Part shown: one piece after another, positions 5,124 through 48,894 of the stretch
Layout of the letters: each line of letters begins with the position of its first letter
How positions within the stretch are numbered: the first letter of the stretch is position 1
NCBI GenBank assembly: GCA_021803205.1
Contig: JAJZMB010000114.1
Coordinates: 6,877-70,876 of the forward strand
Source of the DNA: Bacillota bacterium
GTDB lineage: Bacteria; Bacillota; Sulfobacillia; RBS10-35; JAJYVN01
Direction: 5' to 3'
DNA length: 64,000 nucleotides
Position numbers and translations under genes: made by a program
The notes under the pieces: generated by a model
Told to the model about the DNA's origin: nothing
What the model saw: only the letters and a program-made list of their open reading frames with translations
Database searches by the model: none

Positions 5124-8100
5124 ATGCCGTACTCGGAACGACGCAAACGGCTCATCGGGCTGGCCTGCTCCCTCTGCCTCGCCGCCGCGGGCTGCGCCGA
5201 GAGCCGACCGGCCACCGCGGCTCCCCCCGTGACCGCCGTCCCCGCTGCTGCATCCGCACCGGGCCTGCCCGATGGCGCGGCCACCCCTTCCACCGCGGCC
5301 ACCCCGCCCGCTGCCGTATCCGCGTCCACACCGCAGGCTCCGGCCATCCGACCCGTTCCGAAGTTCACGGACCTCCCGGTCGGGTTCTGGGCGACCGGCG
5401 CCATCGATGCCATGGCGGCCGCCGGCGTGGTGCAGGGGATGGCTCCGGGCCGTTTCGATCCCGCCGCACCTGTCACCCGAGCCGAGTGGGCGGCTCTCCT
5501 ACTGCGCCTGGCGGGAGACCCGGGCAACCCGGTGGGGCCCGTCTTCCGCGATGTCACCCACGGCGATTGGTTCTATGAGGCGGTCGAGGCGGCCACCGGC
5601 CGCGGCTGGATGCAGGGGGTGGCAGCCGGCCGCTTCGCCCCGGACCGGGCGGTGACGCGCGCGCAAGCCGCCGTCGCCCTGGCGGCCTATCTGGGCCTCG
5701 GTCGCGTGGCTCAGGACGAGGCGACGCTCCCGTGCACCTTCAGCGACTGCAGCGCCATCCCCGCATGGGCCGTCGGGGCCGTCCATGTGGCAGCCGACCT
5801 CGGGCTCCTGCGCGGAACAATCGCACGGAGGCTGCGGCCGAACGCGCCGCTCGATCGGGCGCAGGCGGCAGCGCTGCTTGCCCGCCTGCAGGCCGTCCGG
5901 CCCGCCGCCGTGGCCAGGGAGGGCGAGCGCGTGGCCGCCTCGGCCTACATCGAAGCCGGGGCACCCGCGGTGGCGGTCGGCGGAACGCTCACCGTGCACG
6001 CTTACGCCCACGACCGTGCGGGGTACATTGTGCCGGCCGCGTTCACCTTCACGCTGTCCGGACCGGCCACGCTCACCGCCGGTGGCGGCAGCGCCGTCAC
6101 ACTGCGGGCCTCGGCTGCAGGGGTCATTCACGTCGAGGCCAGCACGGCGGGTGGGCGCGTGCGGACGTCGCTGGCGATCTCTGCCCTGCGCGCGGCATCC
6201 CTCTCTGCCGCAGGCCTGCCGCCAGAGGGTCTGGCCGGAGCCACCTTCCCCGTCATGTTGCGCATCCTTGACTCCGCCGATGGGATCGACACCGCCGCAG
6301 CGGGCATCGCCCGGGTGGCGGCGGCGCCCCGCCAGGGCGGCCGGGGCGACCCCGCCACGCAGGCCGCGATCACGGCGGGACAGGCACAGCTGACCCTGCC
6401 GGTCCTCCCCCCCGGGCTATACACCCTGACCTTCACGGCGCCCAGAGTCCCTGCACTGCACGTGCAGTACACCGTCGTTCGCCGACCGGTGGGGGCCATC
6501 CAGCCGCAGCGCGCCATCCCGGCTCTCGCCCACGGCGCCCAAGCCGCCCTGACGGTCGTCCTGCCCGGAGGGCCCTGGCCCCTCCGCGTCTCTGCCACAC
6601 AGCACCCCGCAGGGGCACCGCCCGCAACGGGGGCCGCGCCGGAGGCGGTGGCGTCCTGGTCGGCCGTGCCCGCATCACTGCAGAACACCGGCACCGCCGC
6701 GATACTGCGGGGATTGCAGCCCGGTACGGCGGCCATCACGGTCTCGGTTCCCGGCGGCGCCCTGCGCCCCGCGACGGTGCACCTCCGGGTACTGCCCGCA
6801 GGAAGTTTTCACGCCGCAACGGGGACCGAGTCCCAGGCAAGCGCGGGCGCGGCGATCACGCTGGCCGTCGGCTTGCACGGACCGGCCGCATCCGTGGCCG
6901 TGGAACCCGTCGACCCGGCCGGCCACCCCCTGCAGTCCCTTCCGGCCACCATCCGGGGCCCGGAAGCCGTCGCGCATTTCGTACCCCTTGGCGCGGGACG
7001 CTGGTCCTTCCTATGGACCGCGCCCGGATTCGCTCCCGCCATGGGTGCGCCCGTGCTTGTACGGCCCGGCCCTCCCGTACACCTGGTCGTGGACCCCACC
7101 CCGACATCGGTGCTGCTGCCGGGCCAGGCAGCGGAGTTGCGTGCCTGGCTGGCCGACGCCGCGGGCAATCCCGCGCCCGTCCCTTTCCGGATCACCGTAT
7201 CCGGAACGACCTGCGCGGCAGGGACGTTTCAGGGCGGCGACGCACTCGCCGGGCCTGCGGACTTCGGGTCCTTCCTCGCCCGAGACCCCGGCACGTGCAC
7301 CTTGACCTTCCGCAGCCCGGACCACCCGTCCGCGGGCACCGCCCGCGTGATCTTCCGCACCGTGGCCAACATCGGCGACATTGTCGCCGGCAAGGGGCTG
7401 TGGCTCACCTACCCGGACTGGAGAGGCAACTCGGACGCCCGCCTTCTGGCCACCGCCGCCGCCGACGGCGCGACCCACCTCTACCTGGAGGTGGCCACCA
7501 CCACCGACGGCTTCTACGGCGGTCCCGCCCTCGACGACCTGCTCCGCCAGGCTCACGCGGATGGTCTGGCGGTGATCGCCTGGGTTTACGCGGCGCTGGG
7601 CGATCCGGCCGCAGATGCCGCCAACGTCCGTCAGGTCGCCAACTACCTCACCCCGACCGGGGATCTGGCGGACGGCCTGGCCCTGGACATCGAGGACCAC
7701 CTGGCGGTGTCCGCCGTATCCTCCTTCGCGCGGCGCGCCGCGGCCGCGCTTGGACCGGGCGGTCTGGTGGTGGGTGTCACCTGGGCACCGCAGCAGAAAC
7801 CCTCGTATCCCTACCGCGCCCTGGCGCCCTACGTGAGTGCCTTCGCACCCATGGATTACTGGCATGTGCTTCCAGAAGTCTACACCTATGCACAAGTGTA
7901 CAACTGGGTGCTGCGGTCCGTCCGGATCCTGCGCCGGGATGCCGGGCGACCGACCGTCCCGGTGGACGTCATCACCGAGACCTTCGACTGGTTCGCCGGC
8001 GACTCCGGGCAGGGACTCTTCAGCCCGACGCCGCAGGAACTCTCCGCAGCAATGCGCGCCGCCTCGGATGCCGGAGCGACCGGCGTTTCGTTCTACCGGG

Positions 8101-14919: not shown

Positions 14920-16443
14920 TCAGGCTGGGGGCGCTGTCGGCCGCCCCGTCGTTGGCGCCGGAGGGTGCAAGCGCCCCGGGACCGGATGCGCCGAGCCTCG
15001 ACGGACCTCCCCGCTCCAGGACGCCGCCCCCGCCGTCCCCGCCGACTCCGAAAGGGCGGGTTTGAGCGTCCACGCTTGCAGCCGTGCCTGCAGCCACAAC
15101 TCCATGGGTGCGAATCCTTCCGCAAAGACCGGCCAGTCCCAGTGCAGACGCGCCGGCGGCTTGACGCAGACTTCGGCGGCGACCGCCCGCGGCGCGATGA
15201 CGACGGAGGTCTGCTCAGGATCGCGCAGGACGCGCGCGGCCGCGCTCAGGAAATCCGCCGGGGCCGCCACGGAACGACCGATCGGTATCGCGGACGGCAC
15301 CTGGCCGCGTTGGTCGATAAACCGGTCGCACCAACGGGCGGCCTCCACCAAGGCGCTTTGGGTCAGCGGGCCGGCGACGGAATCCGCTGGCGGCGGAGCT
15401 GACGGCCCGTCGCAGGCCCGCACGGCGATGGCGGCCGCATCGGGGACGCAGAGGGCCCTGCAGACCACACCCAGCGCCTCCGCCGCCGAAAGGGCAAGGC
15501 TGCCGCAAACCGCCCAACTCGCGTGTTCCAGGACGCAGGCGGCCATCGGCCGGATCTGCGCACCGGTCAAGCACGCATTCCGCGCGCGATCCGGGAAGCG
15601 GGCGGCCAGATCACGCGCCGTGATGAACTCCAGGCCCATCCCTCGCAATTCGGCCACAAACCGGCCCAAGGCCTCGGCCGCCGCCCCGACATCGGTCGCG
15701 GCTCGCAAAGGCGCCGGCCGCCAATCCCCCTCCTGCGGCATGCGCCCACGCCCAAAGTTCACCACATCCCAGAAGGCACTGGTGCACAGCTCCGTCGGAT
15801 GGGCCACGACACACAGCGGCGGACCGTCCGCAGGCAAGCGCCCCAGTGCGGAGTCCACCAGGGCCAGCGCTTCGTCCAGGCATCCGGGGAGTGCCGACAG
15901 GAACGGCTTGGGCGCGCAGACCGGCGGTGACCAGTGCAACAGCCCGAGGTAGTGGCAGGGGCGGCCGGAGAAGTCCAGATACGAGTTCCACGCCTCGCTG
16001 AACTCCATGGGAATCCGCCAAGTGCGCACCACCGCAAGCGCTGCGGCCGTCCAGTTGCCGCCAGGCTGCGTCCAACAGGCCAGGGGACCGAACGCCCCCT
16101 CCACCTCCGCGAACCCCGCGGCCTCCCGTGCGGCGAAGGCGGCCTGCGCCGCCGGCCAGCCCAGAGGAGCCAGTTCCTCGGCGATGGTGGGGTGCACGCT
16201 GTGGGTGTTCGAGTGATAGCCTACGGCGTGGCGCGCCAACCGCCCGATCAGCTGCCGGTGCCCCAGCTTGTCCCAGGAGCGCAGCTTTTCGGCCACCAAC
16301 GGAAAGGTGGCGGTGGCATCATGGCGCTCCAAAGCGTCCAACACCATCTCAAGGGCCGCGTCGCTTTCCGGGGTAAGGAAATCCTCCGTATCCATCCGGA
16401 TGGCCATCTCTGTGCCCGTTACCACCGCCGCCCTCCTGCGCAC
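14920..16443 (-). CDS. Polysaccharide deacetylase-like (CE4/NodB-fold) protein with C-terminal extension
   Basis: MDTED, ATFPLVAE, VGYHSNTHSVHP (HxxxH), HPTE; starts 10 nt after the glycosyltransferase stop. Confidence 0.65.
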   Translation of the reverse strand: MRRRAAVVTGTEMAIRMDTEDFLTPESDAALEMVLDALERHDATATFPLVAEKLRSWDKLGHRQLIGRLARHAVGYHSNTHSVHPTIAEELAPLGWPAAQAAFAAREAAGFAEVEGAFGPLACWTQPGGNWTAAALAVVRTWRIPMEFSEAWNSYLDFSGRPCHYLGLLHWSPPVCAPKPFLSALPGCLDEALALVDSALGRLPADGPPLCVVAHPTELCTSAFWDVVNFGRGRMPQEGDWRPAPLRAATDVGAAAEALGRFVAELRGMGLEFITARDLAARFPDRARNACLTGAQIRPMAACVLEHASWAVCGSLALSAAEALGVVCRALCVPDAAAIAVRACDGPSAPPPADSVAGPLTQSALVEAARWCDRFIDQRGQVPSAIPIGRSVAAPADFLSAAARVLRDPEQTSVVIAPRAVAAEVCVKPPARLHWDWPVFAEGFAPMELWLQARLQAWTLKPALSESAGTAGAASWSGEVRRGSAHPVPGRLHPPAPTTGRPTAPPA

Positions 16444-16452
16444 CTGCTGCCC

Positions 16453-17517
16453 CTAACCGTCCCCCCGACCGCTCGGGACCGGCCTGCATACCTCAGCATA
16501 CAGCCGGATGTGAGCCGCAGCCTCCGCCTGAGGCGAGAAGCGCTCCTGCACCGACGCCCGCGCCGCCGCGCCGAGTCGTGCCCGCAGGTCCGGTGCCCGT
16601 GCCAGGTGAACCGCCGCGTCCGGCAGGTTGCCGGGCATCGCCAGCCAGCCGTCCACACCGTGGCGGATCGCCGCCCGGTTTCCCGGAATGTCCGTCGCCA
16701 GAACGGCCCGCCCGGCCGCCATCCCTTCCAGCACGGCGTTGGAGAGGCCCTCCAGCCGGGATGTGTTCAGCACCACGTCGGCACGGCCATACCAGCCCTG
16801 AAGCTCCTGGCGCGGCACTTCTCCCAAGTAGTGAACGAACGGGATGCCGGCCAGGCGCCCCAGGAACGCCTGGTGGAAGGCGGGGTCGCGGGAGGGGCCG
16901 GCGATGTACAGGTGGACATCGCCTCCGGCCTCCCGGACGGCCGCCGCAGCGGACACGGCGAGGTCCGGATCCTTGATTGCGCGGATGCCCGCCGGCAGCA
17001 GGAACAGCAATCCCCGACCGGGCACGGCCGGTGCCGGCGGCCGTGCCCGGTCTATGGCGACCCCCGGCGGGATGACCCTCACCCGCTGCGCGGTCCCGGG
17101 CAACTCCCGCCGCACCTGGTGCGCGGCCCGCTCGTGGAAGGTGATCAGCGCGCGCACTGAGCGCGTGGCGGCGCGCAGCACAGCCAATTCACCCGGCTCC
17201 AGGTCCGTGCCGGTAAACGTCCAGATGACCGGAGAATGCGGTGCCCATTGCAACGCCGGCACCCCGGCCCACCGCGCGTGCAGGGCGTGGACGACCTCGT
17301 CCGGTCCGGGCGGGAGCTCTGCCGGCAGCGCATCCGCAGAAAGGATCCGGCTCTCGACGCCTTCCGCAGCTAGACCCGCAGCCAGCCGCCGGGCGGTGAC
17401 CAGGTTGCCCGCACTCGCCGGCAGGCCGGCGCGGACGATCAGATGGACCCGGCGGCACGCGCCGGGTGATGCTGGCGCAACTCCTCAACGGACGGGGCTG
17501 CACTTGGGCTCGGACAT
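16453..17517 (-). CDS. GT4 glycosyltransferase, SenB (selenosugar synthase)/GLT1D1-like; probable selenoprotein (UGA at codon 11, 17485-17487)
   Basis: Frame is open from ATG 17517 (RBS GGAGGA) except for one TGA. Motifs GNLVTARR, ALHA, TGTD, IRAIKD, EGLSNAVLE. No in-frame ATG/GTG/TTG lies between the TGA and the conserved N-terminal motifs. Confidence 0.75.
17447..17467 (-). promoter_or_regulatory. Candidate SECIS hairpin of the glycosyltransferase
   Basis: ACCCGGCG-cgtgc-CGCCGGGT, a perfect 8-bp stem starting 17 nt after the UGA, with GU in the loop. Confidence 0.55.
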
Positions 17518-17583
17518 CCGGACGCATTCCTCCCCAGCTGACCACTGCATAAGTCCGCTTTGCCGCGGCCACGGCTTCGAAGT

Positions 17584-17633
17584 CCCTTGGCCCCGAGGGC
17601 TCCACGGTTCGCGGCTGGTGTGGGAACCGACTC
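17584..17633. repeat. Dispersed 50-bp structured repeat, copy 2
   Basis: 43/50 identity to 22-71. Confidence 0.8.
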
Positions 17634-18124
17634 TTCCGCCGACGTCCCGGGTCGAAACGGCGGTGTCGACGGCGACCGCCTGCCCCCAGTGTATCAGGAT
17701 CGCGCCCCGCCGATGGTCAGCTCCCTGACGCTGCATCGGTCGTCCATGCCGGACCACGGCCGGGACCCAGGGCGCGCCCCCGCCCGCCGGGGGGGGCCCC
17801 GGTGCAGGTGCGCGCGTAGGCAGGGACGCCACCGTGCCCGGCGGATTCGGCTCCCCCGGCGGCGCGCGGTATCGGCCTGCTGCGCATGGGCCATCGCCCA
17901 TCGAATGGCGCCAGTGAACGGGCACGGCGCGGCCGCGGCGGGTGCCCGTCCATGCCCGCAGGTGCCCATCCCGGACAACGCCCGCCCGTCGCTGTTCACC
18001 GGCACCCCACACCCCCGCCGCGCCGGCATGCGTCTTTTGCATGCACTATATGCGTCGAGGATGCCGGTTTGGTAGGGTGGGCTTCAGTTGGGCGCCCAAG
18101 GAGCAAGGAGAGGATGCTCCCGCT

Positions 18125-19198
18125 ATGAATATGTCTGTTTCTGCGCAGCAGCGGCCGCGGCCGGGGGCCGCGATCGGGGTCGGCGTGTTTATCCTGCTCG
18201 CCTTGGCCGGTTTGTTCTACGTGAAGTGGGATCCCTATTTCCACAAGGCGTTCGTGGCTGCCGCGCACCACAGCATTGGCGCCTCGATCCTCAGCGGCCC
18301 AGCCGCCGGTGCGCCAGCGGCTGGCTGGAAGGCGGCCTGGGACTTCACGATCGCCTACGGCAAGGATATCTGGGAAGCCCTGATCGTGGGGCTGGTCCTC
18401 GGAGCCGGCGTCCAGGCCCTGCTGCCACGGTTGTGGCTGTTGCGTCTCCTGGGCGGGACGCGCTACCAGGGGACGGCTGTGGGAGGCCTCGCCGCCGTTC
18501 CGTCAATGATGTGAACGTGCTGCTCCGCCCCACTGGCGGTGGGGCTCACCCGTAGCGGGGCTTCCGTCGGATCCGTGCTCGCGTACTGGATCGGGAATCC
18601 CATCCTGAATCCGGCCACCATGGTCTTTATGGGCTTCGTGCTCGGTTGGCGTTGGGTGGCACTGCGGATTGTCGTCGGCGTGGTCCTGGTCTTCGGCGTG
18701 GCCTACGCGGCGCAACACCTGGTGCGGCCCGGCGACCTCCCGGAGGCGGCAGTCCAGGCACACGCCGCGGCGTTCGCCTCCGGCGACGACGGGTCGCTGT
18801 TCGGCCGCTGGATCACGGCCCTGTGGCGCCTGGCGATCGGCCTGGTGCCGGAGTATCTGGTCGTCGTGGTCGTCCTGGGCGCGGTCCGCGCATGGTTGTT
18901 CCCGGCGATGAGCCCGGCGGTCGGTCACAGCCTCTGGCTTGTTCTGGCGCTGGCCCTGACGGGCACCCTGTTTGTCGTTCCGACGGCGGGCGAGATACCC
19001 ATCGTCCAGACCCTGATGCATTTCGGTCTGGGTTCGGCGGGGGCGGGGGTGCTGCTGACGACGTTGCCGCCGGTGAGCCTGCCGTCACTGGTGATGGTGG
19101 GCCGCGCGCTGCCGGCCCGCGTGCTGTTTTTTGTCTCCGGCAGCGTTGTGGTCCTCGGGCTGCTGAGCGGGTTGGCGGCGGCAGCCCTGCACCTGTGA
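18125..19198 (+). CDS. YraQ-like DUF318/ArsP_1 family permease, selenoprotein (UGA 18512-18514)
   Basis: Two in-frame ORFs joined by one TGA in PSMM-U-TCCSAP, where E. coli YraQ has MMCTCCAAP (recalled). Also GLFYVKW, GNPILNPATMVFMGFVLGW, PTAGEIPI. Confidence 0.88.
18527..18545 (+). promoter_or_regulatory. Candidate SECIS hairpin of the permease
   Basis: GCCCCAC-tggcg-GTGGGGC; stem starts after a 12-nt spacer from the UGA, the same as in selD. Confidence 0.7.
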
Positions 19199-19318
19199 AG
19201 GGTTGCGCGGGCGTCTCCTCCGTTTTCCGTTCGGAAGCCAGCTGCGGTCCGCATCGGTCGCAAGAGATATCGGGTCTTGCCGATGGCACATGCGATGACC
19301 CGGAAGGGGGTGGCGCCC

Positions 19319-20374
19319 GTGGCTGTCCGTGACTTCACCCGCCTCACCAGCCTCGCTGCCTGCGCCGGGTGAGCGGCCAAGAAGGCGCCAGGGGACCTGG
19401 CGCACATGCTCCGCGGTTTCAGTGCGCTCTTTCCGGCCGAACTGACGCGCGAGCTGATCGTCGGGCTGGATGCGCCGGACGACGCCGCCGTGTATCGTTT
19501 GGACGAGCACCGCGCCCTGATCTTTACGGCCGACTACTTCCCCCCGGTCGTCGACGATCCGCGCGCGTACGGCGGCATCGCCGCTGCCAACGCGCTCAAC
19601 GACGTCTTCGCCATGGGCGGCAAGCCCGCCTTGGCGCTCAACCTGGCCTGCTTTCCTGACGACATGCCGTTCGAGGTGGCGAGGGAAATCCTTTGGGGCG
19701 GAGCCGAAAAGGCGCGGGAAGCCGGGGCGGTGGTGGCCGGGGGGCACACCACGCGCGGGGAGGAGCCTACTTACGGTCTGGCCGTGATCGGCTTCGTCGA
19801 CCCGGCGAAGCTGACGCGCAAGGGCGGGGCGATGCCCGGAGACCGCCTGCTGTTGAGCAAGCCCATCGGCAGCGGCGTTGTGACCACCGCCGGCAAGGGC
19901 GGTGCGGCCTCCCCGGCGGTGATCCGGGCAGCGGTCGCTTCGATGTCCCAGCTCAACGCGGCGGCGGCGGACGCAGCGGCAGTCACCGCCGCGCACACGG
20001 GCACGGATGTGACGGGCTTCGGCCTTGTGGGGCACGCCTTGGAGATGGCGGCACCCGCCGGCGTGGCCTTCCGCATCTTCCCCGCGCGCGTCCCGCTCTT
20101 GCCGGGGGCGGCGGACTGCGGGCGTGCGGAGTGGTTTCCGGGGGGCACGGCCAGGAACGAGGCGCACTTCGGCGGCCGTGTCCGGGCGGCGACCGATTTG
20201 GATCCGCTCCTGCGGCGCCTGATGTTCTCTCCGGAGACGGCGGGCGGCCTGCTGGTCGCCGTGCCCGCGGAACGCGTGCCGGATTTCGTCGCTGCGGCCC
20301 GCGCCGGTGGGCAGTCCGTATGGGAGATCGGCGAGGTCGTGGAGGGCACGGGGGTCGAACTGGCCTCCGTTTGA
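19319..20374 (+). CDS. selD: Selenide, water dikinase SelD, selenocysteine-containing (UGA 19370-19372)
   Basis: RLTSLAACAG-U-AAK active-site motif, DDAAVY, TADYFPPVVDDP, NALNDVFAMGG, GGHT, TDVTGFGL, PETAGGLL; GTG start with AAGGGGGTG RBS. Confidence 0.95.
19385..19403 (+). promoter_or_regulatory. SECIS hairpin of selD
   Basis: GCGCCAGG-gga-CCTGGCGC after a 12-nt spacer from the UGA. Confidence 0.75.
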
Positions 20375-20454
20375 GCAGGGCGCCGGCTTTCGGTCACGCG
20401 CCCTGCGCCGTATGACGAGGGAACGGCCGCTTTGCCGGGGCTGCCGTTCCCCCG

Positions 20455-22545
20455 TCACGCCAACCGCCGCACATCGCCCTCACGCCGGGTGACGTGGATC
20501 CCGTCCAGGTACTCTGCCAGGGGCACCGCAAACTTGCGCGTCACACCGAGCAGGTCGCGCAGTTCCGCCACCGTCAGCGTGCCGTGCTCCCGGAGGTACG
20601 TCCGTACCTGCGCCACCGCCGCCGCGAGCGACCGGGCGCCAAAGCACAGGCCCGCGTCCACCCGCGCCAGCCGACCCGTCTCCACCAGGTGGGCGAGCAG
20701 TTCGCCGCGCTCGGCATCGTCGCCGGAAAACCCCGAGGCCGCCAGCGCCTCCACCACTGGCGGGGGTTGCAGCCCAGCGGCCTCCAACGCCGTCACCAAC
20801 CGGTCCGCCACCGCGGCGAGGTCCGTCGGCAGGGCCGGCGTGTGCTCCGGCAGCGCCACCCGCTCCCCCTCGGATCGCACGCGGCCCTCCTCGGCCAGCC
20901 GCGCGACGATCGCGGCGGCCCCCCGGGCGTCGATCCCGGCCAGCGCCGCGCGGCGCAACTCCTCGCGGGGCATTCCCGGCCGCAGGGGATGACGCGCGTG
21001 GTAGTCCGCCAGCGCTTGCGCGACGGACGCACGGAGATCGTTCCAGCCATGGGCCGCGATGTATATCGCGGCCTCACCCGCACCCCCGAGGGCGATCAAC
21101 TCGGTGCCATCCACCAGCGCCTGCGCGCGCGGCTGCGCCTCCGCCACCGGCAGTCCCGCACGCTGTGCCGCGTTCGCCAGCGATCGCGGAGTGCTCCCAC
21201 TGAAAGCCGCCAGCAGCAGTTCGCGCGGGTCGCCCTTCTCCGCCAGCACCAACGCCTGCAGATCCGCAGTGCGGTATCGGCGGAAGCGATGGCCGACCTC
21301 GAGCACCGTGCCGCCGCCGACGGTGGCCACCGGGCTGTACGAACGCACGATGAAGCGGTCGCCGCGGCCGGCCGCGACCGGACGCTCAAGGCGGAGCATG
21401 GTGAAGGCGGAGGCCCCCGGTTCCAGGGTGTCGCCCTCCAGCAGGGTGGCGCGGCACAGTACCTCCGCGGTGCCCAGATGTAGGTGCAAACGCTGACCGT
21501 TCTTCAGGGGAGTGGCGTTGGCGGGCAGCGCCAGCAGCCGGACGGCCAGCAGGTCCGCGGCCCCGAGGCTACCGGGGGTCGCCAACACCTCGCCGCGGCG
21601 CACATCCGCGCGTCCGACGCCACCGAGGTTGACCGCGACACGCTGACCGGCGCGCACCCGTTCCACGGACCGGCCGTGCACCTGCAGGGCGCGCACCCGG
21701 ACGGACAGGCCCGCCGGCAGCAGTTCCAGGCGGTCGTCGACGGACACGGCGCCGGAGGTCAGCGTCCCGGTGACCACTGTGCCGAAACCGGCCACAGAGA
21801 AGACTCGGTCGACGGGCAGCCGGACAAAGCCGCGGTCCTGGTGCCCCTCCGCGCCGGCCAAGGTCGCGTCGAGGGCGCTGCGCAATTCGGGCAGCCCCTG
21901 CCCACCGAGGGCCGAAACCGACAGCAGTGGAACGCCGGCAAGGGGGGTGCCCCGCAGGTGGGCGCGGACGTCCTCGGTTACCAGCGCCAACCATTCCGCG
22001 TCCACCAGGTCGACCTTGGTCAAGGCGACGACCCCTGCCGTCACGCCGAGCAGCAGGGCGATGTCCAGGTGCTCACGCGTCTGCGGCATCACACCTTCGT
22101 TACCGGCGACGACCAGTAGCGCCAAGTCGATCCCGGTCGCGCCTGCGACCATGTTGCGGATGAAACGCTCATGTCCGGGGACATCGACGATTGCCGCGTG
22201 GCGCCCCGAGGGCAGGGCGAGGTCGGCAAAGCCCAGATCGATACTGATGCCCCGCCGCTTCTCCTCCGGCAGGCGGTCGGTGTCCACGCCGGTCAGCGCG
22301 CGCACCAGCGTGGTCTTGCCATGGTCGACATGGCCCACGGTGCCGATGACACCAGGCGGGACCGGCGCCGCGGCGGTTCCGCCCGATGTCGCGATCGGCG
22401 CGGGCGACGGCCTGCGCGACTCCTTGGGCAGAGTGATGACCCCCTTTCCGGCGTAGCAAGCCCTGTTGGCATGTGTCTGGATGCGCGGTACACGCCCCTT
22501 CGGCCGCGGCGGAGCCGTCGCCATCCCCGGTAGCAGCGGCTGCAC
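20455..22545 (-). CDS. selB: Selenocysteine-specific elongation factor SelB
   Basis: [34 protein letters not shown]; C-terminal winged helix [19 protein letters not shown]. Confidence 0.95.
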
Positions 22546-22557
22546 GGCGGCTCCCCC

Positions 22558-24006
22558 CTACCGGGTGCGCTCCAAAGCCGCAGCCACCAATTCCGGCAGG
22601 GCCTGCTCATCCTCCGGAAACAGAGTCCGCGGATCCAGCAGCACCGCATCCATCCGGATGCGGGCGACCACCGGGGGGTCGCCTCGCCGGAGCGCAGCGG
22701 CCAGAGCCTGCGCGCCGCACACCGCCGGGCGAAGCGCCACAACCGAAGTCGGCAGCGGGCAATCCGGCAGGGCGCCGGCACCCACGGCCGACTCTCCCGC
22801 TTCGATGCCGGCCTTGCAGGCCGTGCCCAACCGGTCTGAGAGGGAGTGCGCCATCCGCTGCGCCGCGGCCAACAGGTCCGGCGGCAACCGCGCCAACATG
22901 GCCAGCGCGGGCACGGCCTCTGCCGCCCGCCCGGCCCGGTACAGGTTCAGGGTGGCCTCCAGTGCCGCCAGCGTCATCTTGTCCACGCGCACGGCGCGGT
23001 GCAGCGGGTGGCGGGCACAGGCGCGCACGTGGTCGGCACTTCCGCAGATCAAGCCGGCCTGAGGACCGCCGAGCAGTTTGTCCCCACTGAAGGTGACCAC
23101 GTCCAGCCCGGTGGCCAGGGCGCTCCGCACGTCGATCTGTTCTGGGCTGCCGACCCCGGGAAGGTCCGGCGCCAGTGCCCCCGATCCCATGTCGTAGGCA
23201 ACGGGGACGTTATGCCGGCGCCCCACTTCCACAAGCTCCCTCAGGCTCGGCGCCGTGGCGAAGCCCACAATGCGAAAGTTGCTCTGATGCACCTTGAGCA
23301 GCAGCGCCGTGTCCGCCCCTACGGCGGCCGCGTAATCCCCGGCGTAGGTGCGGTTGGTGGTGCCGACCTCCCGCAGATGCGCCCCACTTTGGGTCAGCAC
23401 CTCCGGAACGCGAAAGCTGCCCCCGATCTCAACCAGTTCGCCACGCGAGACCACGACCTGCCTGCCAGCGGCCAGGGCGGACAGCAGCAGCAGCACCGCG
23501 GCGGCGTTGTTATTGACCACCAGTGCCGCCTCGGCACCCGTGATGGCCCGCAGATGTTCGGCGACCAGTGAGGAGCGATCGCCACGCTCCCCGGTATCCA
23601 GATCGAATTCCAGATTGCTGTAGCGCGTCGCGGTGGCGCGCACGGCTTCGGCCGCCGCCGGCGCCAGCGGCGCCCGCCCCAGACCTGTGTGCAGGACGAC
23701 GCCGGTGGCATTGATGACGCGATGCAGTCGGGGCCGACACTCCACAGTGAGGTGCGCGATCACGGACGCCGGCACATCCACGCCGTCAGGGAGCAGTCCC
23801 GCGCTGGGAGATTCCGCGCGGATCTCGTCCAGCACCGTTGCGCACGTGTTCCGCACCCGGGCACGGCCCACGCGCTCCACCCAGGGCAACAGGCGCGGAT
23901 CCGCCAGCAGTGCGTGCATCGCGGGGAGGCGTCCCGGACGGACGCCTGCCGTCGGGCGCGGGCACCTCCCGCCTGCGCCGCCCACCCCGCCAGGTATCGA
24001 TCCCAC
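22558..24006 (-). CDS. selA: L-seryl-tRNA(Sec) selenium transferase SelA
   Basis: VINATGVVLHTGLGRAPL, VNNNAAA, SRGELVEIGGSFR, EVGTTNRT, FSGDKLLGGPQAG; start inferred. Confidence 0.95.
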   Translation of the reverse strand: MGSIPGGVGGAGGRCPRPTAGVRPGRLPAMHALLADPRLLPWVERVGRARVRNTCATVLDEIRAESPSAGLLPDGVDVPASVIAHLTVECRPRLHRVINATGVVLHTGLGRAPLAPAAAEAVRATATRYSNLEFDLDTGERGDRSSLVAEHLRAITGAEAALVVNNNAAAVLLLLSALAAGRQVVVSRGELVEIGGSFRVPEVLTQSGAHLREVGTTNRTYAGDYAAAVGADTALLLKVHQSNFRIVGFATAPSLRELVEVGRRHNVPVAYDMGSGALAPDLPGVGSPEQIDVRSALATGLDVVTFSGDKLLGGPQAGLICGSADHVRACARHPLHRAVRVDKMTLAALEATLNLYRAGRAAEAVPALAMLARLPPDLLAAAQRMAHSLSDRLGTACKAGIEAGESAVGAGALPDCPLPTSVVALRPAVCGAQALAAALRRGDPPVVARIRMDAVLLDPRTLFPEDEQALPELVAAALERTR

Positions 24007-24605
24007 GTCCCTCTCCCTCTTCGTCGCGGCATCCGGAACCGGCCCAAGATCCGGCACCCAGCCTGCCTCCCCGTACTCAGCCACCGCGCCAGCGTCGACA
24101 TCTGCTTCAGTGCGAGCGTAGCGGGTTCCCGGCGTCCGCGTCCAGTCGGCGGCGGCAGCGCGCCAGCCGGACGCGAACCCGGTGCGCCGTACCGGTCCGC
24201 ACGGACGGCGCGCTGCCGGGCCCACGCTGGCCGCGGGACCAGTCCCCCTCTGCAGGCCCGTTGCGCCGATGCCCCACGTCCCCCATGGCCTCACCGTTCG
24301 CTTCCCCCGCTAAGCCCGATTTTGGCAGAGCCATTGCGGGCGTACGCGCGGCCGGGCGTCGGGCGTCACCACGCCCGGATACCGTGCTCCCGGAGCGGTC
24401 GTGGGGCTCCGGGAGTGCGGGGTGGGCTTTTGCCGCGAACTGGAGAGCAATCCTGACCCGGCACGCAGTTCCCGCGAGGTGTTTGGTGCGCCGTGCCGTA
24501 ATCTGCATCACTGTCCGGTGTGGGGTCTTCCGGCCATCCTGGCCGTGGCAGCCCTATCCCGGGTGCGGCGTGGGTGGGCTTTCCGCCGCGGCGGGTGGCA
24601 CATTT

Positions 24606-24700
24606 GGGAGTAGCAGGATGACTGGTGTCGCCCCCGGTCTTCAAAACCGGTGAGCCGGCTTCGGCCGGCTGGTGGGTTCGATTCCCACATGCTCCCGCCA
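24606..24700 (+). tRNA. selC: tRNA-Sec (anticodon UCA)
   Basis: CCGGT-CTTCAAA-ACCGG anticodon arm, long variable arm, GTGGG-TTCGATT-CCCAC T arm, encoded GCCA end; divergent from selA. Confidence 0.95.
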
Positions 24701-24880
24701 AGCGTTGAGCTGCAAGCTGCACAGGCAAGAGCCCCCAGAGATCCCTCCGGAGGCTCTTGCCGTTTCCAGACCGGTTCCGGTCACGATCTGGTCACGCGCT
24801 GCCGATGACGGTCAGCTACCAACGGCGACGGGTCTTCCCGCCGAGCGGCGGCGAGACCGGAAGGGCGGGCGGATCGAACC

Positions 24881-26083
24881 TTGCAGGCAGCAGGCGCCAC
24901 GGTCTCCCTGGGCACGCACCGCCCGGCGGCAGGCGCGGCACCATTTCCCGGGGATGCCCGGGGAAGGGGGGTGTCCTTCGCCGCCCTGATCTGGATGCAC
25001 TTCGTCAACGACGGCCTGTCCGCATACCTGCCCGGGGTGCTGCCGTACCTGGTGGTGGCCCGGCACATCTCCCTGCCCTGGGCCGGAGCCCTCATGAGCA
25101 TCCTCCTGGTGGGACAGGCCCTGCAACCCCTGGCGGGCATCTGGGCCGACCGGATCGGCGGGCGGCGCCTGATGGTCCTGGGACCCGTGCTCGGCGCCCT
25201 GGGCACGCTGGGACTGGCCTTCGCCTCGGACTATGCGGCGTTCGCCGTCGCCCTGTTCCTCATCGGCGCCGGCAGCACGATCTACCACCCGCAGGCGCTC
25301 AGCGCGGCCCGCAGCCTTGCGGCGCGCCGCGAGGGGACCAGCATGTCCGCCTTTCTTGTGGGCGGGGAACTCGGGCGGGCCATCGCTCCGCTGGCGGCAG
25401 GCGCGATCGCCGTGGGGTTCGGACTGACGCGGCTGTGGTGGCTCGCGCTCCCGGTGGCCCTGACCTGGCCCTGGATCTGGCGGGTCCTGCCCCAACTGCC
25501 GGCACGGCCGGCCGGCACGGTGCGCGTGGCCTGGGGCCGGCACCGCGGGCCCATGCTTGCGCTGGTCGCCTTCGGCGCACTGCGAGCGGCCACAATGTAC
25601 GGCATCAGCACCTTCGCCCCGCTGCTCTGGCAGCAGCGGGGCGGCTCGCTGGTCGCCGGGGCCGGATTGGTCACCACGCTGGTCGGCGTCGGTATCGCCG
25701 GCAATCTGACCGGCGGCCTGGTCGCCGACCGCTGGGGCCGGCGACCCGTCCTGGCCGGGTCCGCGCTCCTTGGCGCCGCGATGCTCGCCCTGTTCCTGGT
25801 CGTGCACGGACCCTGGCTGTGGCCCGCGCTCGGCGCCGCCGGCATCGCCCTGTTCTCAACGCTGCCGGTGACCACGCTGGTGGGACAGGACATCTTCGCG
25901 GAGAACCCGGCGCTCGGCTCCGGCGTCGCCATCGGCTTCGGGAACGGACTGGGCGCCCTGCTCCTGCCCCCACTGGCCCTGGCCGCCGCCCGCTGGGGCA
26001 CGGCTGCGCCCCTCTGGATCATCTCCGGGCTGATGCTCTGCTGCCTACCGACCGTCGGGGTGCTGGCGCCGCGCCGCCGGTGA
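24881..26083 (+). CDS. MFS transporter (Fsr-like)
   Basis: HFVND, QPLAGIWADRIGGR, GSTIYHPQA, GGLVADRWGRR; about 12 TM; start uncertain. Confidence 0.85.
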   Translation: MQAAGATVSLGTHRPAAGAAPFPGDARGRGVSFAALIWMHFVNDGLSAYLPGVLPYLVVARHISLPWAGALMSILLVGQALQPLAGIWADRIGGRRLMVLGPVLGALGTLGLAFASDYAAFAVALFLIGAGSTIYHPQALSAARSLAARREGTSMSAFLVGGELGRAIAPLAAGAIAVGFGLTRLWWLALPVALTWPWIWRVLPQLPARPAGTVRVAWGRHRGPMLALVAFGALRAATMYGISTFAPLLWQQRGGSLVAGAGLVTTLVGVGIAGNLTGGLVADRWGRRPVLAGSALLGAAMLALFLVVHGPWLWPALGAAGIALFSTLPVTTLVGQDIFAENPALGSGVAIGFGNGLGALLLPPLALAAARWGTAAPLWIISGLMLCCLPTVGVLAPRRR

Positions 26084-26115: not shown

Positions 26116-26793
26116 TCATCCCAGTTCCGCCAGGGCCTCCTCCACCGCCTCCACCCTCCGCCCGACGATGAACGGCGTCTCCGATTTCGTCCAGCGGCGG
26201 GCCTCGGCCTCCCGCAGACGCCGAATCAGGGCGGCGAAGCGCTCCGGCCGATCGCACTCGAAGGCCAGCAGCCACTCCCAATCGCCGAGACCGAAGGCCT
26301 GCACGTTGTTGGTCTGGATCTCGGGGAACTCCCGCCCCATCAGGCCGTGCTCACGCAGGATCCGCCCCCGCTCCGCATGCGGCAGCAAGTACCACTCCGG
26401 GGTGCGCACGAACGGGTAGAGGCAGAGGTAGCGCAGCGGCGGCTTGCCCAGTTGGAAACTGGCGTAGTGGTCCCCAACGTATTCCGGCTTGTGGGCTACG
26501 CCAAGAAAGGCGTGTGACAGATCACAGCAGCGGCCGAACAGCGTCCGCCGCAGCTCCGCCGCCACCGCCTGGATGGCCGCGACGTCTTCGGCCAGCAACC
26601 AGAAGGCCAGATCGGCGTCCGGCCGCAGGCCCGCCGTGCTGTAGACCCCACGGACGGTGACCTCGGGGTGGGCGCACAGCGCGTCGCGGACCTCCCTGGC
26701 GGCATCCCCGCGCGGGGCGCTCAGCCAGCGCCAGGTGCGCCGATAGACCAGAGTATGGGTGAACTGCGTCTCCGGAACCTGCAGCGTGCTCAC
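26116..26793 (-). CDS. hemQ: Coproheme decarboxylase / chlorite dismutase family (HemQ/ChdC)
   Basis: GVYSTAGLRPDADL, YPFVRTPEWYLL, EHG, AFGLGDWEWLLAFE. Confidence 0.8.
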   Translation of the reverse strand: MSTLQVPETQFTHTLVYRRTWRWLSAPRGDAAREVRDALCAHPEVTVRGVYSTAGLRPDADLAFWLLAEDVAAIQAVAAELRRTLFGRCCDLSHAFLGVAHKPEYVGDHYASFQLGKPPLRYLCLYPFVRTPEWYLLPHAERGRILREHGLMGREFPEIQTNNVQAFGLGDWEWLLAFECDRPERFAALIRRLREAEARRWTKSETPFIVGRRVEAVEEALAELG

Positions 26794-26895
26794 AGCGACC
26801 ACTCCCCGCAGAAGGCGGCCGGGTCTGGGGATCGGAGCCGCGACGCCGGCGCGGCCCATCCCGCCCACGCCGGCCTGCCTGAAAACTGGACCGCC

Positions 26896-39650: not shown

Positions 39651-39696
39651 GTGCGGGTAGCCCCCTTTTCTCCGAAGGGAGTGGCTGCCTCTCGTC

Positions 39697-39930
39697 CGCA
39701 GGCAGGTCTCCTGGCTCTCCCCGCATCGACGCCGCGCCCTCTTCCCACCCCCAGCACAGAGGCAGTGAGTTGCTTGCCGCGTCAGGCGACGTCTTGGGGA
39801 GCACAGTGGCGGGACCGCGCCGGCTCGGCCGTGCACCACCCAAACCCATACCTGGGAGGCGCTGCGGCACCCCGGACTTCCCTATTCTCCCTGGCGGTCG
39901 ACCCTCCGGGCCGACCCCAGGACACCTGCG
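39697..39930 (-). ncRNA. Cobalamin (AdoCbl) riboswitch
   Basis: AGGTG...AATAGGGAA...CCGGCGCGGTCCCGCCACTGT...CACTG...GGGAAG...AGCCAGGAGACCTGCC (B12 box). Confidence 0.92.
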
Positions 39931-40233
39931 GACCATCTGCAGTTGTGGCAAAATGGTAGCATGAGGCTGTGACGCGGACAAGGGGCCTGGCGGCCTCGGA
40001 CGCGGCGCCGCCGCCCACCGTCGCAGCGCCACAAACCGCACCTCCGAGGGATCGCCGTCCGCCCTCGGGCTTGTTCCCACTCCTTCCGATCGGACACATC
40101 CCAGACGGAGCGGCATCGGGCAGGCGGCAGATGGCCGGGGGGGAATACCTCACCCGGGGCGTCGCGACCCTCCACCCCCCGGATCCCGCCTCCCCACCCA
40201 GAGGCGACGCCCGAAGGGATGGTCCGAAGGCGC

Positions 40234-48453: not shown

Positions 48454-48659
48454 GCGCGCCCACTCCCTTCAACGTGAAAAGACAGGGCCATCCCGACCAC
48501 CGATCGACCGGCTGCGACGCTGCCAAGACGCAGCGCGCCATCGGCTGGCCGGCTGGTATGCCCAACCCCGCGGGTCCGTTCCGTTGAAAATCGGGGGAGC
48601 GCGCACGTGCGGCAAGACTGTGCGCAGGCACACCAACGCCTACGCCTCCACCGCCATCC

Positions 48660-48826
48660 CCTTGTCCCCGCGGTCACCCGCGGGATTTGCAGGACGGCTT
48701 CGGCCGTGGACGGCCGGAGGGTGTCCGCCGAATCCTTCGATAGCCCCTCTCCTCGTCGACTCACCGGCGAAGGTCGAGCCCCTACTACGGTGCAAACCCT
48801 TCGTGCGCAGCGAGTCCAGGCGCTGT
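48660..48826 (-). ncRNA. glmS ribozyme-riboswitch
   Basis: A^GCGCCTGGACT...AGTCGACGAGG...ATCGAA...TTCGGCGGA core in the glmS 5' UTR. Confidence 0.9.
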
Positions 48827-48894
48827 GTTCTGAGGTGCCGCCCGCCCCCGGTCCGCCCCACCTCCTGCAGCAGCCGGCATCCGACCCGCTCAGC

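Follow-up and report, generated by a model that had tools for sequence, protein, structure and literature searches.

A glycosyltransferase and deacetylase gene pair beside a selenocysteine-decoding island in a Sulfobacillia genome

Introduction

Does a glycosyltransferase gene that lies next to the genes for selenocysteine (Sec) insertion take part in selenium metabolism? The question is raised by a 64,000-nucleotide stretch of DNA from a Bacillota bacterium of the class Sulfobacillia (contig JAJZMB010000114.1, positions 6,877 to 70,876; the whole stretch is called the window below), in which a small GT4 glycosyltransferase (GT) and a putative deacetylase, X495, are encoded beside a permease gene, selD, selB, selA and tRNA-Sec. 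According to two papers, the known bacterial selenium-specific small-molecule pathways number two, those of selenoneine and ovoselenol, and both begin with SenB (PMC11030361, PMC13188914). A preliminary description of the locus, made from the sequence alone, had called the GT SenB-like and had proposed that these genes make, deacetylate and transport a selenosugar. We find that the locus is an ordinary Sec-decoding island beside a separate GT-X495 module. The module probably makes a glucosamine (GlcN) conjugate in the manner of BshA and BshB; BshA/BshB and MshA/MshB carry out the first two steps of bacillithiol and mycothiol synthesis, respectively.

Results and Discussion

The locus and its genes

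The window was taken from contig C179 of a 3.74-Mb metagenome-assembled genome (MAG) that is 88% complete and about 72% G+C; among public sequences, its genes have their closest relatives in Bacillota MAGs. To establish the gene order, open frames were translated with table 11 and again with TGA as Sec (U), and the products were scored against NCBIfam and Pfam. The preliminary description had placed X495 and the GT on the minus strand, a permease and selD divergent from them, and then selB, selA, tRNA-Sec and a transporter of the major facilitator superfamily (MFS). This inventory was right:

14920-16407, minus strand: X495, 495 amino acids (aa), a putative NodB-fold (CE4-like) de-N-acetylase with an extra C-terminal domain, assigned from homologues and invariant residues; stop codon TGA 14920-14922
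16453-17448, minus strand: small GT4 glycosyltransferase, 331 aa; best family NF038229, 'GPMC system'
18125-19198, plus strand: ArsP_1/DUF318-family permease, a selenoprotein (PF03773, 69.3 bits, cut-off 32.3); in-frame TGA 18512-18514
19283-20374, plus strand: selD, selenide, water dikinase (TIGR00476, 335.5 bits, cut-off 125); Sec codon TGA 19370-19372
20455-22545 (open frame), minus strand: selB (TIGR00475, 365.4 bits, cut-off 242), with SelB winged-helix domains
22558-24294 (open frame), minus strand: selA (TIGR00474, 530.9 bits, cut-off 268); the match begins at residue 122
24606-24700, plus strand: tRNA-Sec, anticodon TCA (ARAGORN; Rfam RF01852, 73.3 bits, gathering score 47)
24881-26083, plus strand: MFS transporter, substrate not assigned (PF07690, 102.5 bits)

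SelD, SelA, SelB and tRNA-Sec thus all passed their curated cut-offs. The MFS gene, at most a candidate member of the system, had no homologue at E 1e-8 across the 52 related loci described below.

The glycosyltransferase and X495 travel together

Among the 209 genomes of the class, 51 had X495, 138 had a selD match above the cut-off and 60 had the permease. Fifty-two stretches around X495 matches were compared, tblastn matches of less than 100 aa being ignored. At 47 of these 52 loci the GT and X495 were no more than 4 kb apart, and at 46 the GT was directly upstream of X495; on a GT tree, all of the X495-paired GTs fell in one clade (support 98). selD or the permease was found within the compared stretch at only four loci, those of genomes G496, G495, G494 and G473. 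In families f4 and f181, the context of the pair was an HD-phosphohydrolase gene, GT, X495 and a Zn-dehydrogenase gene, with no selenium genes; Nramp, M20 peptidase, serine acetyltransferase, two-component system and superoxide dismutase (SOD) genes were found nearby.

In a phylum sample of 401 genomes, the GT family was present in 29, strongly in 23, and 19 loci of other families (L181-L199) were compared. None of the 19 had selD, selA, selB, the permease or X495 nearby. At 11 of them a PIG-L deacetylase gene (BshB1-like, at 121 bits against a cut-off of 182.5) was directly upstream of the GT, and at five an MBL-fold hydrolase gene was downstream of it. Since two unrelated deacetylase folds stand beside one GT family, the GT product is probably N-acetylated and then deacetylated. 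The earlier proposal that the GT and the deacetylase are a conserved functional pair was therefore borne out, by X495 in the class and by PIG-L elsewhere, and it is fair to suppose that the pair makes an N-acetylhexosamine product and deacetylates it in the next step; what did not survive the comparison was the larger neighborhood of GT, deacetylase, DUF318 permease and selD, and with it the dedication of the pathway to selenium. The GT-X495 module is older and more widespread than its adjacency to the sel island.

Other neighbors were observed at subsets of loci. Some of the L181-L199 loci have an HlyD/ABC exporter set divergent from the GT. A flavin-reductase-like gene (PF01613) is directly downstream of X495 in the three genomes of family f6; in G494 its place is between selD and the GT, and in G473 it is nearby. 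Its coordinates are 5385-6230 in locus L046, 8160-9263 in L048 and 6575-7825 in L051, and it is also present in L050 and L052. In the f6, G494 and G473 lineages, this gene may belong to the module as its third member.

X495 itself had no match in Pfam (E 0.01) or NCBIfam, and 131 homologues were found, some of them with PF01522. All of 38 aligned sequences have D6, E8, D9, H65, H69 and H203 (copies of X495 of 380 aa or less, and of the GT of 250 aa or less, were excluded from the residue alignments). Of these residues, D6, D9, H65, H69 and H203 would be the Asp-His-His metal triad and the catalytic Asp and His of a NodB-type enzyme, the motif assignment of each residue being our own reading. 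The Atlas model of one X495 homologue, P0065, resembles polysaccharide deacetylases, with a TM score of 0.89 over the whole protein and 0.78 against a 244-aa NodB protein; CE4 matches of the X495 family profile in the Protein Data Bank (PDB) were weak (E 0.03). Because the catalytic motif begins at residue 6, X495 is predicted to be cytoplasmic and to lack a signal peptide. By inspection, neither X495 nor the GT has a signal peptide or a membrane segment.

The glycosyltransferase resembles SenB but scores best against another family

The GT was scored against family models. Its best NCBIfam match was NF038229, at 248.2 bits against a cut-off of 400. PF00534 (80.2 bits), PF13692 (62.3 bits) and PF13439 (31.9 bits) were all above their Pfam gathering scores. 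The SenB hidden Markov model (HMM) TIGR04348, which the preliminary description had proposed as a check, gave 93.1 bits against a cut-off of 300, and the BshA model TIGR03999 gave 38.1 bits against 273.7. Among 1.84 billion cluster representatives, 98 relatives of the GT were found at E 1e-30 and 3481 at E 1e-10. A test set was made of the window GT and 136 proteins of 290-420 aa from the best 150 relatives; all 137 reached E 1e-40 against NF038229, and not one did so against SenB.

Against solved structures, a search with the single GT sequence placed SenB at the top (E about 1e-8, full length), and the GT family profile gave 135 bits for SenB, 125 and 116 for BshA and 102 for MshA. The window GT and SenB are alike in being small GT-B fold GT4 enzymes of about 330 aa that align from end to end (SenB, TIGR04348, of the sen and ovs clusters; PDB 8jjn, 8jjq, 8fbx and 8k5u), and in the window selD is also nearby. 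The label SenB-like was thus apt as a description of resemblance but not of family membership. The window module further differs from sen clusters in having a deacetylase, which sen clusters lack, and in having no SenA or OvsA partner. BshA and MshA, for their part, are UDP-GlcNAc enzymes with small acceptors. Their likeness to the module is that a GT4 acts first and a de-N-acetylase second, a likeness extended by the BshB1-like PIG-L proteins that GT relatives in other families use. The differences are that the window deacetylase has a predicted NodB fold rather than a PIG-L fold, and that no Cys ligase gene is adjacent.

Residues were compared with a HMMER alignment and the SenB residue list of PMC10891094, where SenB is described as a UDP-GlcNAc enzyme with a small acceptor, N20, H58, R61, T83, T85, R155 and K158 as residues of the selenophosphate pocket or of catalysis, and V157 as a contact of the acetyl group. 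By that list, the window GT keeps N20, T23, H58, T83, T85, D86, R155, K158 and E231; R61 is replaced by W and V157 by I, and the SenB motif EGGAHV reads EGLSNA. In 48 GTs of the class, T85, D86, R155, K158 and E231 are invariant, N20 is present in 47 (the other having a gap), position 83 is T or S, and the position of V157 is V or I in all 48.

Some GT relatives are fusion proteins. There are four tandem GT4-GT4 fusions, and one protein (P0330, 641 aa) carries a PrmA/MTS-type methyltransferase domain. The fusions were considered as a clue to function and set aside as uninformative, being mostly GT4-GT4.

The family that best fits the window GT is named for the GPMC system, which consists of a GT4 (NF038229), an MBL hydrolase (NF038231), a sigma-54 regulator (NF038230) and a TIGR04442 protein. 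The window GT differs in scoring under the family cut-off, and the window has none of the partner genes, nor were they seen in the class loci compared. No paper on the meaning or function of GPMC was found in a literature search. Only four metagenome loci, L107, L110, L119 and L155, had all of its genes, with scores of 1567.7 bits for NF038230, 962.5 for TIGR04442, 389.2 for NF038231 and 404.5 for the GT4; one protein of each partner type was scored and the others were assigned by clustering.

The module is retained where selenium genes were not found

In genus g344, no selD, selA, selB or tRNA-Sec over cut-offs, and no permease, was found in genomes G525 and G526, which are 96% and 97% complete. 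In both, the GT and X495 are intact with all of the pocket residues kept, and the g344 GT and X495 are under purifying selection (dN/dS 0.13 and 0.12). The module is kept in g344 without selenium genes, and therefore selenium is not required for it; for the same reason, a SenB-like pocket is not diagnostic of selenophosphate use. The window-type module differs from SenB in this persistence. Genome G530 was also considered as a selD-free carrier and was set aside, since the presence of selA and selB there indicates a probable assembly gap. Judged from these genomes, a selenium-independent function of the GT-X495 module would be the simplest reading.

The gene families, the coupling of GT to X495 and the persistence of the module where selenium genes are absent are observations; the sugar donor, acceptor and product are our inference. 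The small cytoplasmic GT4 would move an N-acetylhexosamine, probably from UDP-GlcNAc, onto a small anionic acceptor, and X495, as a NodB-fold metallo-deacetylase, would strip the acetyl group to leave a glucosaminyl conjugate. The module would share its logic with BshA/BshB and MshA/MshB, although their deacetylases have another fold, and it would not need selenophosphate. Bacillithiol synthesis itself was considered as the role of the module and rejected, because a true BshA (contig C43, 460.9 bits) and BshC are encoded elsewhere in the genome.

Selenium links and rival readings

Several observations weigh against a selenium-independent function. The permease, selD, GT and X495 genes occur together in the window genome and in G496, G495, G494 and G473, in three different orders. 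In G496 and G495 the permease is near X495, at a contig edge. The order in G494 is GT, flavin reductase, selD and X495, followed by the divergent permease, and in G473 it is X495, GT and selD on one strand, again followed by the divergent permease. G473 has a selA-selD pair on one contig, so that the selD inside its GT cluster is a second copy, an arrangement like that of sen clusters with SenC. On the GT tree, the selD-linked genomes of the class require at least three changes.

GT relatives were found at 80 loci in a metagenome scan, and two of these GTs (matches of 250 residues or less) were excluded from the tree. In soil metagenomes selD was upstream of the GT on the same strand at 27 of the 80 loci; where the upstream sequence extended for 4 kb or more, as at 32 loci, 14 had it. 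The typical order (loci L105-L175, for example L143 5729-11029) was LysR, selD, sometimes a transglutaminase-like gene, GT, and then MoxR/DUF58/vWA genes; the LysR belongs to NF040786, 'selenium metabolism-associated' (314.7 bits), and the GT scores 358 bits for NF038229. All 26 selD-linked tree rows are in one clade of 49 rows (support 99), and in its sister clade the GT is followed by an NF040786-family LysR gene (299.9 bits) at five loci, two of them identical. The conservation of N20, T83, T85, D86, R155, K158 and E231 across the GTs, and the alignment of SenB, and of SenB only, across the whole GT acceptor domain, point the same way; BshA and MshA do not align from the start of that domain but only from profile positions 44-45 and 96, respectively. 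Finally, selD was present in 48 of 51 carriers of the GT or X495 in the class versus 90 of 158 non-carriers, and in all 29 GT carriers of the phylum sample versus 279 of 401 genomes overall. Both ratios overstate the link, since the genomes counted are related and hence not independent. The recurrence of selD beside parts of the GT family nonetheless keeps the selenosugar idea alive.

Two further observations were made on the metagenome loci. The slot after selD in loci L105-L175 is sometimes occupied by a thioredoxin-like or DsbD-like gene. Among the 80 loci, no PIG-L and four MBL partners of the GT were found, and no deacetylase was found in the soil clade with LysR, selD and GT.

In the selenosugar model of the preliminary description, the GT is a Se-glycosyltransferase of a second kind: it would use UDP-GlcNAc and the selenophosphate made by the neighboring SelD to form 1-seleno-GlcNAc, X495 would convert this to 1-seleno-glucosamine, and the permease and MFS protein would move selenium or the product. 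SenB's place as the top solved relative speaks for this model, as do the retention of seven of eight SenB pocket or catalytic residues (R61 being W), the rearranged clusters with a dedicated second selD in G473, the soil loci with selD and a selenium-associated LysR, and the frequency of selD among carriers. The family scores, however, place the GT outside SenB, and few class loci and none of the other-family loci compared have selD or the permease nearby. Moreover, g344 keeps both the pocket and purifying selection without the Sec genes, and the single clade of X495-paired GTs makes a single shared function simpler. A consumer for the product is also missing: the preliminary description had noted the lack of senA/egtB in the window, and no SenA-, EgtB-, OvoA- or OvsA-type gene was found in the 88%-complete genome either, a lone FGE-sulfatase gene scoring 111 bits against the SenA cut-off of 420. 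For the most part, the GT groups with GT4 clades outside selenium metabolism and the gene association is not conserved, the two outcomes that the preliminary description had itself held to speak against its model, and we regard the model as unlikely. A broader version, to which we give a similarly low probability, is that NF038229-type GT4s include Se-glycosyltransferases and that in the window lineage SelD, GT and X495 make 1-seleno-glucosamine, with the Sec/Cys permease feeding in selenium. If this were true, it would be a third bacterial selenometabolite route, one with no SenA-type partner, and g344 would use an alternative acceptor.

Selenium might instead enter at the level of physiology, with chemistry that is free of it: a glucosamine-based small molecule, such as a thiol-type carrier or ligand, would reduce, carry or buffer selenium or soft metal(loid)s. 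This would explain a recurrent but non-obligatory adjacency to selD, the selenium-associated LysR and the permease. It would also suit the kinship of the GT to BshA and MshA and the serine acetyltransferase, SOD, Nramp and quinone-oxidoreductase genes near the pair in f4. Yet the pair has no conserved neighbor that could serve as a third-step ligase, BshA and BshC are already encoded in the genome, and the proposal is wholly inferential; we think it rather improbable. We hold it more doubtful still that the pair adds GlcNAc to a cell-envelope glycan or glycolipid and partly deacetylates it, the adjacency to sel genes being inherited synteny without meaning. Homologues are annotated at source as 'glycosyltransferase involved in cell wall biosynthesis', CE4 enzymes mostly act on polysaccharides, tandem GT4-GT4 fusions occur among the relatives, and in G496 the GT-X495 pair is followed by rapZ-yvcK-whiA. 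The lack of signal peptides and membrane segments in both proteins argues against such a role, and no flippase, polymerase or other envelope gene is conserved next to the pair, whose closest solved relatives act on small molecules. A BshA/BshB-like module, making a glucosaminyl conjugate beside the sel island, is therefore the reading that we prefer.

The comparison shows that the nearest relatives of SenB are a large uncharacterized GT4 family that is habitually paired with a deacetylase and sometimes lies by selD and a selenium-associated regulator. The question is narrowed to whether any NF038229-type GT accepts selenophosphate, and the case serves as a warning that SenB-like pocket residues alone do not predict selenium chemistry.

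The permease is a recurrent partner of selD

The in-frame TGA of the permease gene was aligned in 13 sequences, the window's and 12 relatives', and corresponds to TGA in six and to a Cys codon in seven. The surrounding motif is PSMM[U/C]TCCSAP, with U in the window. A Sec form of the permease was found in seven genomes, each with one in-frame TGA, and in the five that were compared and in the window the TGA aligns at the motif. The permease gene and selD are adjacent, with either one first, in at least 16 of the 60 carrier genomes, which belong to several families (loci L202-L207 are included); 16 is a lower bound, selD positions having been taken from the 150 listed of 751 matches. Judged by gene order and alignment, the permease is a recurrent selD partner in this bacterial class, marked by a predicted membrane motif, PSMM-[Sec/Cys]-TCC. 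The Sec permease gene of G498 lies 4.3 kb from selA, on a contig with no selD.

Related transporters are the SO_0444-family Cu/Zn efflux transporter (NF033936, UxC), SaoE and the ArsP organoarsenical permeases, to which the window permease is similar in its PF03773 fold and in having Sec in a U-x-C motif. In a 2026 review, the SO_0444 family is listed as a selenoprotein with a UxC motif, and prokaryotes are described as without a known specific selenium transporter (PMC13188914). The window permease differs from SO_0444 and SaoE in being far under their cut-offs (44 bits against 300 for NF033936, 48.3 against 325 for NF040736, SaoE), and in belonging to a clade that recurrently neighbors selD. 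No paper on the pairing of DUF318/COG0701 with selD was found in a literature search. The permease most likely transports selenium or else a soft metal(loid). The pairing of permease and selD is a better selenium lead than the GT-X495 module: with its place by selD in 16 or more genomes, the [Sec/Cys]-TCC permease offers a concrete candidate for a prokaryotic selenium transporter.

In-frame UGA codons and the Sec island

The preliminary description had reported three neighboring genes with an in-frame UGA followed by a hairpin. Two of the three, the permease gene and selD, do have one; in SelD the Sec is at the active-site position, U within ACAG-U-AAKK in the window translation. A Sec codon inside the GT gene was rejected, because the TGA at 17485-17487 is upstream of the GT start codon. 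Read-through of the X495 stop TGA was likewise rejected: relatives align to X495 only up to about residue 450-485, and the 41 extra residues have no counterpart in them. A hairpin is present 3' of each real UGA, but at 72% G+C neither folds more stably than shuffled sequence does (z -0.54 and -0.26). SECIS hairpins were therefore rejected as evidence for Sec, their energies being at the shuffled level and two non-Sec TGAs folding alike. The comparative alignment of the permease TGA is the stronger evidence for Sec, as read from sequence.

The match of SelB to its family begins at residue 66, so the true start of selB is probably later than the start of the open frame.

In the same genome, a gene group at 26169-29561 of contig C132 (locus L200) includes another selD, which is of the Cys type (GSGCASK) and has no TGA; the genome therefore has two selD paralogues. 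That gene is adjoined by a divergent LysR gene, whose product is 32% identical to a metagenome 'selenium metabolism-associated' LysR, and then by a gene for a cysteine desulfurase of the IscS/NifS-like kind, which matches solved desulfurases at E 2e-98. selD paralogues are common in the window's family, with three in G498 and two each in G496, G495 and G473, all with an in-frame TGA.

Other features of the window

Four features lie outside the locus. On the minus strand at 1691-1787, ARAGORN reported a tRNA-Arg (CCG) that has its anticodon at position 37 and, at 97 nt, is longer than is usual for such a tRNA; Rfam at its gathering score listed no tRNA at 1691-1787. The other three are:

26116-26868, minus strand: HemQ-like chlorite-dismutase-family gene (212.8 bits, just below the NCBIfam cut-off of 235)
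39684-39944, minus strand: cobalamin riboswitch (60.9 bits)
48643-48835, minus strand: glmS ribozyme (91.7 bits)

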